A DNA stretch of 64,000 nucleotides, taken from assembly GCF_058153355.1 (NCBI RefSeq), contig NZ_CM177019.1; one strand, given 5' to 3'. The position numbers were made by a program. Positions within the stretch are counted from its first letter, which is position 1. Every line of letters begins with the position of its first letter. Shown here one piece after another: positions 36,001 to 42,000 of the stretch.

Positions 36001-39000
36001 CCTGCGGTGGAACGCCCGACGCCCGGTAACGCGGCAACCTCATCAAAGGTTTCCGGGAATTTACCGCCGTGTAAGGTGGCAACTTGCTGTGCCGCTTTAT
36101 GTAGATTGCGCGCGCGGGCGTAATAGCCCAGTCCGGTCCACAAGTGGAGAATTTCGTCCAGCGGCGCATTGGCGAGATCGGTCACCGTTGGGAAGCGCGC
36201 CATAAAGCGTTCAAAATAGGGGATAACGGTCGCAACCTGAGTTTGTTGCAACATCACTTCTGAGAGCCATACTTTGTAGGGCGTCTTGTCAATTTGCCAG
36301 GGCAGCGTTTTCCGCCCGTATTTATCGTACCAGTCCAGAACCTGGGCTGAAAATTGCGACGCTTGCATGGTCACCGAATTCACTGTTGTTGGGGGCAAGA
36401 TTGCAGCACAGCGACGGCAGGGTGTAAACCGGAACTTTCCGCAGCCACGGCCTTATCATGCTTGCATCCGGCAACTAACTTTGGATAATGCCCGTTTTCA
36501 GAACACTTTCACAAGCGACTAAATCTTTATGAAAAACGACGTCATCTCACCGGAATTTGATGAAAACGGCCGCCCACTGCGCCGTATCCGTAGTTTTGTG
36601 CGCCGCCAGGGGCGACTGACCAAAGGCCAGGAACATGCGCTGGAAAACTACTGGCCGGTGATGGGCGTTGAGTTCAGCGAAGATATGCTGGATTTCCCTG
36701 CGCTTTTTGGCCGTGAAGCGCCAGTGACGCTTGAGATTGGTTTCGGCATGGGGGCGTCGCTGGTGGCAATGGCTAAAGATCGCCCTGAGCAGGACTTCCT
36801 CGGCATTGAAGTGCATTCACCAGGCGTTGGTGCGTGCCTGTCTTCTGCGCATGAAGAGGGCTTAAGCAACCTGCGCGTGATGTGTCACGATGCGGTTGAA
36901 GTGCTACACAAAATGATTCCTGACAATTCATTGCGCATGGTACAGCTCTTTTTCCCTGACCCGTGGCACAAAGCGCGCCATAATAAACGCCGTATCGTTC
37001 AGGTGCCGTTTGCCGAACTGGTAAAAAGCAAACTGCAACTGGGGGGCGTATTCCATATGGCGACCGACTGGGAACCTTATGCGGAACATATGCTTGAAGT
37101 GATGTCTTCGATTGACGGTTATAAAAACCTGTCAGAGAGCAATGATTACGTACCGCGCCCGGCATCACGTCCGGTGACGAAATTTGAACAACGTGGTCAT
37201 CGTCTTGGTCACGGAGTATGGGACTTAATGTTCGAGAGGGTGAAATAATGGCAAAGAACCGTAGCCGTCGTCTGCGTAAAAAAATGCACATCGACGAATT
37301 CCAGGAATTAGGATTTTCGGTGGCATGGCGATTCCCGGAAGGTACATCGGAAGAACAGATTGATAAAACCGTTGATGACTTTATTAACGAGGTTATCGAA
37401 CCGAACAAACTGGCCTTTGACGGCAGCGGATATCTGGCCTGGGAAGGTCTGATCTGCATGCAGGAAATCGGCAAATGCACCGAAGAACATCAGGCGATTG
37501 TGCGTAAGTGGCTGGAAGAGCGCAAACTGGATGAGGTACGCACCAGCGAACTTTTCGACGTTTGGTGGGACTAAGAAAGCATACGGGCGATGACAAATGC
37601 AAAACTGTCTGATGCGCTACGCTTATCAGGCCTGGAAAGATGCACAATCGAGTAGGCCGGATAAGGCGTTTACGCCGCATCCGGCATGGATAACGTGTAC
37701 TTTGTTATCAATCTGGGGCCAGCAAATGCTGGCCTGATTTGTTCTTGAGGGAAGACTATGATGCGCAAAATGCTGCTGGCGGCAGCACTTTCAGTGACGG
37801 CAATGACCGCTCACGCCGACTACCAGTGCAGCGTCACGCCGCGTGATGATGTGATTGTCAGCCCGCAAACCGTGCAGGTGAAGGGCGAAAACGGCAATCT
37901 GGTGATCACGCCAGACGGCAACGTGATGTATAACGGTAAGCAATATTCCCTGAACGCCGCCCAGCGCGAGCAGGCGAAGGATTATCAGGCTGAACTGCGT
38001 AGCACGCTGCCGTGGATTGATGAAGGCGCGAAAAGCCGCGTCGAGAAAGCCCGTATTGCGCTGGATAAAATTATCGTTCAGGAGATGGGCGAAAGCAGCA
38101 AAATGCGCAGCCGTCTGACCAAACTTGATGCGCAGCTGAAAGAGCAGATGAACCGCATTATCGAAACGCGCAGCGACGGCCTGACGTTTCACTATAAAGC
38201 CATTGATCAGGTTCGCGCCGAAGGCCAGCAATTAGTGAATCAGGCAATGGGCGGAATTTTACAGGACAGCATTAATGAAATGGGCGCGAAAGCGGTGCTG
38301 AAAAGCGGTGGTAACCCATTACAGAATGTGCTGGGAAGCCTGGGCGGTCTGCAATCCTCAATCCAAACCGAATGGAAAAAGCAGGAAAAAGATTTCCAAC
38401 AGTTTGGCAAAGATGTTTGTAGCCGCGTTGTGACTCTGGAAGATAGTCGCAAAGCCCTGGTCGGGAATTTAAAATAATCCCCTATTTTAAGACGGCATAA
38501 TACTTTTTTATGCCGTTTAATTCTTCGTTTTGTTACCTGCCTCTAACTTTGTAGATCTCCAAAATATATTCACGTTGTAAATTGTTTAACGTCAAATTTC
38601 CCATACAAAGCTAAGGGATAATGCGTAGCGTTCACGTAACTGGAGGAATGAAATGGAGTTTTTCAAAAAGACGGCACTTGCCGCACTGGTTATGGGTTTT
38701 AGTGGTGCAGCATTGGCATTACCCAATATCACCATTTTAGCAACCGGCGGGACCATTGCCGGTGGTGGTGACTCCGCAACCAAATCTAACTACACAGCGG
38801 GTAAAGTTGGCGTAGAAAATCTGGTTAATGCGGTGCCGCAACTGAAGGACATTGCGAACGTTAAAGGCGAGCAGGTAGTGAATATCGGCTCCCAGGACAT
38901 GAACGATAATGTCTGGCTGACACTGGCGAAAAAATTAACACCGACTGCGATAAAACCGACGGCTTCGTCATTACTCACGGTACCGACACGATGGAAGAAA

Positions 39001-42000
39001 CCGCTTACTTCCTCGACCTGACGGTGAAATGCGACAAACCGGTGGTGATGGTCGGCGCAATGCGCCCGTCCACGTCCATGAGCGCAGACGGTCCATTCAA
39101 CCTGTATAACGCGGTAGTGACCGCAGCTGATAAAGCCTCCGCTAATCGTGGCGTGCTGGTGGTGATGAACGACACCGTACTGGACGGTCGCGATGTCACC
39201 AAAACCAACACCACCGACGTAGCGACCTTCAAGTCTGTTAACTACGGTCCTCTGGGTTACATTCACAACGGTAAGATTGACTACCAACGTACCCCGGCAC
39301 GTAAGCATACCAGCGACACGCCGTTCGATGTCTCTAAGCTGAATGAACTGCCGAAAGTCGGCATCGTTTATAACTACGCTAACGCATCCGATCTTCCGGC
39401 TAAAGCACTGGTAGATGCGGGCTATGATGGCATCGTCAGCGCTGGTGTGGGTAACGGTAACCTGTATAAATCCGTGTTCGACACTCTGGCGACCGCCGCG
39501 AAAAACGGCACTGCAGTAGTGCGTTCTTCCCGCGTACCGACGGGCGCTACCACTCAGGATGCCGAAGTGGATGATGCGAAATACGGCTTCGTCGCCTCTG
39601 GCACGCTGAACCCGCAAAAAGCGCGCGTTCTGCTGCAACTGGCTCTGACGCAAACCAAAGATCCGCAGCAGATCCAGCAGATCTTCAATCAGTACTAATC
39701 ACCTCGCCCCGGTATCGTGCCGGGGCTTTTCACTTCAGACTCACGTCCATTGCCAATTTTCATCACCCTAATGATAATCACCGGAATAAATTATTCCGCG
39801 CGAGGGTTTTCGGGTGAAAAAGCAATGGATTGTAGGCACGGCGCTGCTTATGTTGATGACTGGTAATGCCTGGGCAGATGGCGAACCGCCAACTGAAAAT
39901 ATCTTAAAAGATCAATTCAAAAAGCAGTATCACGGCATTCTCAAGCTTGATGCCATCAGCTTAAAAAATCTTGATGCTAAGGGTAATCAGGCCACCTGGT
40001 CAGCGGAAGGCGATGTCTCTTCCAGTGACGATCTCTATACCTGGGTCGGTCAGTTGGCAGATTACGAACTGCTCGAACAGACCTGGACGAAAGATAAACC
40101 GGTAAAATTCTCGGCGATGTTAACCAGTAAAGGAACGCCCGCGTCTGGCTGGTCGGTGAACTTTTACTCTTTTCAGGCGGCAGCCAGCGATCGTGGGCGG
40201 GTGGTCGACGATATCAAAACGAATAATAAATATCTGATCGTGAATAGCGAAGATTTCAATTATCGCTTTAGTCAGCTTGAATCAGCGTTGAATACCCAGA
40301 AGAACTCGATTCCTGCGCTGGAAAAGGAAGTGAAAGCGCTTGATAAGCAAATGGTGGCGGCGCAGAAAGCAGCGGATGCATATTGGGGAAAAGATGCAAA
40401 CGGTAAGCAAATGACCCGCGAAGACGCCTTTAAAAAAATTCACCAACAGCGTGATGAGTTTAATAAACAGAACGATAGCGAGGCGTTCGCGGTTAAATAT
40501 GACAAAGAGGTTTATCAACCGGCGATTGCGGCATGTCATAAACAGAGTGCAGAGTGTTATGAAGTGCCGATTCAGCAGAAGCGAGATTTCGATATCAACG
40601 AACAACGGCGACAGACTTTTCTGCAATCACAAAAACTTAGTCGTAAATTGCAGGATGACTGGATAACGCTCGAAAAAGGGCAATATCCGTTAACGATGAA
40701 AGTTTCAGAAATAAACAGTAAAAAAGTCGCGATTTTGATGAAAATTGATGATATCAACCAGGCTAATGAACGCTGGAAAAAAGATACCGAACAATTGCGG
40801 CGCAATGGGGTGATTAAGTAATTTTTGCGATGACGCAAGAGTTGTAGCCGGATGTTGCGTACACGCCGCATCCGGCAATACAAATTTACTCAGCCAGAAA
40901 AAGCTCCAGCAGCGAATTTAAAAACAACTTCCCATGTTCCGTTATCTGCCAGTAATCCGCACATTCTGTGAGATAACCCTGAGCAATAGCCTCGTCTAAC
41001 TGAGGGCGAATAACCTCTTCTGAAAGGCCAGTATACTGGCTAAACTCCACGCGCGGCGCGGCTTCCAGCAGACGGAAGCGATTCATAAAGAACTCAAACG
41101 GCTTATCTGCGGCTTCGACATCGCGCTGGCTTTCCAGATACCGCCCCTGCATAAAACCACGCGGATGACGCGTTTTGGTGGTGCGCAGAATGCGCCCATC
41201 CGGGAAGGTGACTTTGCCGTGCGCGCCGCAGCCAATACCGATGTAGTCACCAAATCGCCAGTAGTTGAGATTGTGCTGGCACTGATAACCTGGTTTGGCG
41301 TAAGCGGATGTTTCATACTGCTGATAGCCCGCTGCGGTTAATAACTGATGCCCCTGTTCGAAAATATCCCACAGCGCGTCATCGTCCGGCAGTACAGGAG
41401 GGCGCGAGCCAAACAGCGTATTAGGTTCGATGGTTAGCTGATACCAGGAAAGATGCGGCGGATTCAGTTCAATAGCCTGGCGTAGATCGCCAAGCGCCTC
41501 TTCCAGTGATTGATCCGGTAGCCCATGCATCAAATCGAGGTTAAAGCTACGTAACCCTAAACCGCTCGCCAGCTTCGCAGCTCGTTTCGCTTCTTGCGGG
41601 CCATGAATGCGCCCAAGTCGTTTCAGCTTTTCTTCGCTAAAACTCTGCACACCAATAGAGATGCGATTCACGCCAGCACGCTGATAATCAACAAAGCGAT
41701 CGGCTTCTACCGTGCCTGGGTTCGCTTCCATGGTGATTTCTGCATCCGCTGCCAGCGGCAAACGCGCACGCACGCCGTCCAGCAGCGTTTGCATCGCCGG
41801 GCCAGAAAGCAGGCTCGGCGTACCGCCGCCAATAAAGATTGTCTGCACTTCACGGCCCTGAGCGTAAGCCACATCGTTGTCCAGATCGTTAAGCAGATGC
41901 TGAACATAATCGTCGTGCGGCACTTCTCCTTTCAACGCGTGAGAGTTGAAATCGCAGTACGGACATTTCTGCACGCACCACGGGATGTGAATGTAGAGAC

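Follow-up and report, generated by a model that had tools for sequence, protein, structure and literature searches.

A one-base poly-A deletion and a lineage-specific frameshift pseudogene of ansB in a clone labelled Escherichia coli

The window analysed here, a 64-kb stretch (64,000 nucleotides) of contig NZ_CM177019.1 in the RefSeq assembly GCF_058153355.1, carries a copy of ansB, the gene for the periplasmic L-asparaginase 2, that is split between two reading frames because a run of seven A has lost one base. This loss (A7 to A6) is very probably a genuine, inherited null allele; it turns a very well known gene into a recent frameshift pseudogene of an ordinary kind, specific to the lineage. 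The mutation is considered real, and not an error of assembly, because independent assemblies of the same clone share A6 and because no other gene in the window is frameshifted. The gene is annotated as ansB, L-asparaginase 2, in the syntenic E. coli loci yggN-ansB-yggM, and its remains in the window are arranged as follows.

38653-39698, plus strand: ansB pseudogene, 1046 bp (1047 bp if intact)
38653-39021, plus strand: N-terminal open reading frame (ORF) of ansB, 122 aa, with the signal peptide and mature residues 1-72 followed by 28 out-of-frame residues
38929-38934, plus strand: A6 tract, the site of the one-base deletion (A7 in intact genes)
38991-39698, plus strand: C-terminal ORF of ansB, 235 aa, in the native frame; its first ATG is mature Met92, in HGTDTMEET

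Read from the sequence, bases 38920-38940 are acactggcg aaaaaa ttaac, with the codon reading gcg aaa aaa tta, while in an intact ansB the A7 run spans the codons AAA AAA ATT (Lys93-Lys94-Ile95). The frame shifts after Lys94 (mature Lys72). The 122-aa ORF holds the signal peptide (residues 1-22, 38653-38718), the TGGTIAGGG motif, Thr12 and Tyr25, and stays in frame to ...NVWLTLAKK before 28 unrelated residues, which end in TGA at 39019-39021; residue 23, where the mature protein starts, agrees with the crystallised chain (6uod_A). The other frame, translated from 38934, reads to the normal ...IFNQY C-terminus with its stop at 39698, and tblastn likewise breaks the gene into two frames. The 235-aa ORF within this second frame begins just after Thr89-Asp90, lacks the signal peptide, Thr12, Tyr25 and Thr89-Asp90, and has no Shine-Dalgarno sequence visible upstream of it.

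As a member of the type II asparaginases, the locus has homology over both the N- and C-terminal domains (PF00710 and PF17763): PF00710 is on record for a product identical to the 122-aa ORF (locus L044), and both domains for a product identical to the 235-aa ORF. A signal peptide and a TGGTIAG motif with Thr12, plus Tyr25, are all read in 38653-39021, but no single ORF of about 348 codons carries Thr12 and Tyr25 together with Thr89-Asp90-Lys162 and the C-terminal domain. Since HGTDT and everything downstream of it lie in another frame, the locus is filed as a pseudogene of the family and not as a functional member.

An initial annotation, made from the sequence alone, had already named the gene and placed both ORFs and the A run, with coordinates that proved exact. 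Its further claim that one restored A yields a continuous asparaginase is borne out by the restored protein, whose mature part (residues 23-348) is identical to PDB 6uod_A at 326/326 positions (E = 3.7e-214); the gene therefore contains exactly one lesion.

Matches to the 1046-base ansB sequence were found in 5,425 of 5,426 RefSeq complete E. coli genomes, and among the matches listed (40 E. coli) 40/40 span 1047 bases against the 1046-base query. The 75-mer at 38896-38970, which contains A6, has no record at or above 99% identity among 5,414 RefSeq complete E. coli genomes, the best matches reaching 98.7%, i.e. the single gap. When the yggN-yggM interval was aligned base by base to 14 good-quality A7 loci from Escherichia, the missing A was the sole coding indel, in agreement with the single-base A7-to-A6 deletion first proposed, and A7 is retained even in locus L023, whose ansB is only 92% identical. 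Judging from these alignments, every comparable high-quality Escherichia sequence carries A7.

The quality of the window itself was assessed with 62 reference genes of E. coli 2017-02-2CC, which were translated and compared with the 64 kb by tblastn. Among the 54 that match, 52 are gap-free, in a single frame, and full length or reaching the window edge; the two broken genes are ansB (frameshift) and sslE (interrupted by the insertion sequence IS4). In the nucleotide alignment of the 64 kb, too, no coding indel other than that of ansB goes uncompensated, and the remaining homopolymer length differences are few and all intergenic. Three of these are one-base differences from 2017-02-2CC, at 427-434, 52613 and 57612-57618 (A8 vs A9, T6 vs T7 and T7 vs T8, respectively); they are probably natural polymorphisms, given their intergenic position and a reference that is about 2% diverged.

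Two other assemblies of the clone reach the deletion site. Contig AAXEGZ010000066.1 of GCA_015332025.1 is 99.978% identical to the window over 36209-45231 (two single-nucleotide polymorphisms in 9 kb) and has A6. The Logan contig SRR31441161_270, 100% identical over 37659-45262 (7.6 kb), also has A6, and the 122-aa and 235-aa genes are called on it. The polymorphisms, together with a 12-bp indel in nupG relative to the window, indicate that GCA_015332025.1 is a different isolate. The nupG indel (32414-33667, minus strand) is in frame and varies within the clone: the window and SRR31441161 encode 418 aa, and GCA_015332025.1 and SRR8656992 encode 414 aa. A contig of 28,374 bp at NCBI nearly fills the gap between two copies of a second insertion sequence, IS621, in the window (16845 to 45233), and contig breaks at such copies are the behaviour that would be expected of short-read assembly.

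A homopolymer error in sequencing or assembly, with a true genome that has A7 and an intact ansB, is extremely unlikely on this evidence, even though the change from A7 to A6 is of a kind typical of long-read artefacts. The tract does behave in this way elsewhere. A fragment identical to the 122-aa ORF is on record from 244 contigs, and the ten largest readable contigs, which were examined, belong to megabase-scale assemblies about 98% identical to the window with 4-20 indels per 5 kb, in which many neighbouring genes (trmB, yggN, yggM) are also split. These ten look like uncorrected long-read assemblies; the lookup of the exact 122-aa fragment returned only such diverged, indel-rich assemblies and is uninformative on the clone. 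Among metagenome contigs of the Joint Genome Institute, the A6 36-mer has two matches only, one on a contig of 1.37x coverage and the other on a contig with 16 gap openings in 9.6 kb. Against an error in the window stand the absence of any other frameshifted gene among the 54 matched, the presence of A6 in two other assemblies of the clone whose contigs end exactly at IS621 copies, and the polymorphisms and 12-bp indel by which one of these differs, so that it is no copy of the same assembly.

The A tract is thus a recurrent homopolymer artefact in noisy data, and loci L002-L011, L045 and L046, comprising the megabase assemblies and the two metagenome contigs, all combine A6 with many indels and split genes. 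A6 outside the clone, where it was found only in indel-rich assemblies, is probably artefactual, and for this reason the caution about homopolymer error in the initial annotation is justified. Three options had been left open there, namely an inactivating mutation, phase variation and sequencing error. The evidence favours the first. Phase variation finds no support, given the lack of A6 in complete genomes and an invariant tract in the clone, and sequencing error is countered by A6 in both GCA_015332025.1 and SRR31441161 and by the lack of any other frameshifted gene in the window. A homopolymer frameshift such as this one becomes credible only once it is also seen in accurate data obtained independently for the same lineage. 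As a separate observation, the 235-aa product P0016 (window 38991-39695) has been deposited on its own from S. flexneri 2930-71 and E. coli 1827-70, with 869 contigs on record; behind these deposits, annotated elsewhere, is either a disruption in the N-terminal part of ansB or a repeat of this homopolymer miscall in older pyrosequenced drafts.

Some considerations weigh against an inherited null allele. The support for A6 comes from assemblies made by others. SRR31441161 may be the read set of the window's own genome and SRR8656992 that of GCA_015332025.1; if so, the evidence amounts to two independent isolates, not four. The loss of AnsB activity and expression in the clone is a prediction from sequence, and a low level of native AnsB may arise by -1 slippage on A6.

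The A tract could also be conceived as a contingency locus that turns ansB on and off by slipped-strand mispairing. The lesion does lie inside a homopolymer and a gain of one base would restore the gene exactly; nevertheless, such a phase-variable switch is most improbable. A tract of 6-7 bases is short for a contingency locus. Moreover, a comparison of complete genomes and clone assemblies did not reveal the tract length varying among relatives or both ON and OFF states: the A6 75-mer matches none of the 5,414 complete genomes, all clone assemblies reaching the site have A6, and the retention of A7 in the divergent L023 describes a stable tract with one fixed mutation.

Equally to be weighed is a leaky or recoded frameshift, in which a -1 slip of peptidyl-tRNA-Lys, or insertion of an A by RNA polymerase, would give wild-type AnsB at a useful level of activity. 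A -1 shift after gcg aaa aaa places ATT (Ile95) next and makes the product native, and A-rich lysine codons in E. coli are known to be slippery, which counts in favour of recoding. Against it, G AAA AAA T as read in frame is no canonical X XXY YYZ heptamer, no Shine-Dalgarno-like stimulator was found upstream, and the 80 nt downstream fold at -11.9 kcal/mol, no better than shuffled sequences (z = 0.03). Efficient transcriptional slippage requires runs of about nine A or more, while the tract has only six. Nor is the two-frame arrangement conserved in any relative, all of which are in frame with A7. The locus therefore lacks the heptamer or long A run, the stimulator and the conservation by which programmed -1 frameshifting or slippage is recognised; functional recoding is very unlikely, and any leak would probably be well under 1%.

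With a genuine null allele as the preferred explanation, the course of events can be outlined. Replication slippage would be the most likely cause of the loss of one A from A7 at codons Lys93-Lys94-Ile95. The shift after Lys94 is predicted to give a 122-residue precursor, in which the signal peptide and mature residues 1-72 precede the change of frame, without Thr89, Asp90, Lys162 or the entire C-terminal domain. What is known of the enzyme's structure implies that neither fragment should be active and that an active tetramer of the type II asparaginase could not form; the 235-codon ORF, with neither a signal peptide nor a visible ribosome-binding site, is not expected to be functional. The small clone in which the allele is fixed is labelled E. 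coli at NCBI; it also has IS621 insertions in common on either side of the region, and an IS4 within sslE. The expected phenotype would be loss of the high-affinity periplasmic asparaginase of anaerobiosis, while the cytoplasmic AnsA, encoded outside the window, is presumably unaffected.

For practical purposes, ansB in this genome should be annotated as a frameshifted pseudogene, and the finding has little significance beyond annotation. The clone is predicted to be without periplasmic asparaginase II, and this natural null could serve as a comparison strain. It is unlikely that the loss is adaptive and not neutral decay, through selection to shed immunomodulatory or antigenic surface proteins, or that a low-level -1 slip leaves a trickle of native AnsB; the products of both inactivated genes of the window (ansB and sslE) are exported and have links to host interaction, and an IS621 family element is active in the clone. 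No description of this ansB allele was found in the literature on ansB pseudogenes and frameshifts in E. coli or Shigella, where a paper on S. sonnei merely lists ansB inside an inversion.

The flanks of ansB contain the regulatory elements of an intact gene. The first four features below were read from the sequence.

38531-38546, plus strand: putative CRP-like site, TGTTA-N6-TCTAA
38582-38595, plus strand: putative FNR-like site, TTGTT-N4-GTCAA
38617-38622, plus strand: -10 element, GATAAT
38641-38645, plus strand: Shine-Dalgarno sequence, GGAGG
39706-39731, plus strand: intrinsic terminator of ansB, with a T run after a GC-rich stem of 9 bp

The centres of the CRP-like and FNR-like sites are 50 bp apart. 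The ansB promoter described by Jennings and Beacham in 1993 is said to have a CRP/FNR layout at -91.5/-41.5, with the same 50-bp spacing. Compared with strains that have an intact ansB, the region 38478-38652 differs solely by C/T at 38481. As promoter, Shine-Dalgarno sequence and terminator are unchanged and the coding sequence carries no second lesion, the inactivation of ansB is, on sequence grounds, recent.

The clone was reached through the MutY and YggR proteins of the window, both rare, with 5 and 7 contigs on record, respectively; yggM, rdgB and yggN were rejected as markers of sister isolates because they are too widespread (in as many as 96,361 blocks). Over 25 kb, even the nearest complete genomes show only about 97.9% identity, so the lineage is a rare one. 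A Shigella origin, suggested by the absence of A6 from complete E. coli genomes and by the repeated insertion sequence, was considered and rejected: the lineage-specific proteins of mutY, yghD, gspL and glcF are deposited only as Escherichia coli, and the dense IS1 load expected of Shigella is not seen in the window, where 52/54 matched genes are intact. Loci L041 and L042, which share the yggR protein, are too distant to date the mutation, having only about 98.7% DNA identity, A7 and no IS621 after yggR.

Other features of the window include the second disrupted gene, its neighbouring secretion operon, the insertion sequences and three Rfam matches.

9471-15463: sslE, lipoprotein metalloprotease/mucinase, 1518 aa in the reference, split by IS4
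11115-12540: IS4 in sslE, with a 442-aa-type transposase on the minus strand
17043-28795: gsp type II secretion operon, pppA to yghD, downstream of sslE and fully intact
15549-16844, plus strand: IS621 family (IS110), first of three copies, 326-aa transposase
45234-46529, plus strand: IS621 family, second copy
61877-63172, minus strand: IS621 family, third copy
6993-7214, minus strand: C0719 small RNA (Rfam, 285.6 bits)
28949-29021, minus strand: tRNA at the tRNA-Phe position of the reference (Rfam)
61843-61886, plus strand: marginal ES036/CssrF match (Rfam, 40.4 bits against a gathering score of 37.6)

On either side of IS4 lies a copy of its 13-bp target duplication, CACCTTCAATCTG (11102-11114 and 12541-12553). 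The gsp type II secretion system is known to have SslE as its cargo. The three IS621 copies are 100% identical over 1296 nt, and each adjoins a repetitive extragenic palindromic (REP)-like sequence (...tgcccgatgcgc.. GCTTATCGGGCCT...). In complete E. coli genomes that have any member, the IS621 family is found at 5 places per genome in the median and at no more than 28; an exact copy is absent from all complete E. coli genomes. As contig ends of GCA_015332025.1 coincide with two of the copies, these insertions appear to be common to the clone. The ES036/CssrF match, which coincides with the REP-like junction of the third copy, may be spurious. A tripartite ATP-independent periplasmic (TRAP) transporter cassette (DctP, DctQ, DctM) is located between yggM and hemW in many E. 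coli (loci L003-L006, L008-L011, L021, L022, L028, L030 and L032); the window is without it, like K-12-type genomes.

The closest known system is E. coli L-asparaginase 2 itself (AnsB or EcAII; PDB 3ECA, 6UOD), with which the window shares the yggN-ansB-yggM locus, promoter layout, signal peptide and terminator. In contrast to the functional enzyme, the catalytic Thr89-Asp90-Lys162 and the C-terminal domain are here cut off from the exported N-terminus.

Loss of periplasmic asparaginase II has been engineered in pathogens. In S. flexneri, ansB mutants showed normal growth in vitro, with reduced adherence and attenuation (PMC3998974), and asparaginase II secreted by Shiga toxin-producing E. coli (STEC) O157:H7 inhibited T-cell proliferation (PMC7464798). 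The clone resembles the engineered ansB mutants of these organisms in its predicted loss of the enzyme; however, those are laboratory knock-outs, whereas the present allele is natural and its clone is known from sequence alone.

The allele is also comparable to the homopolymer-slippage pseudogenes of clonal or host-restricted enterobacteria such as Shigella, with which it shares the loss of a single base from an A run in an otherwise pristine gene, as well as the proximity of an IS-disrupted gene (sslE, by IS4) and several identical IS621 copies. Unlike Shigella-type decay, only 2/54 matched genes are broken here, with no evidence of decay across the genome, and the lineage is labelled E. coli.

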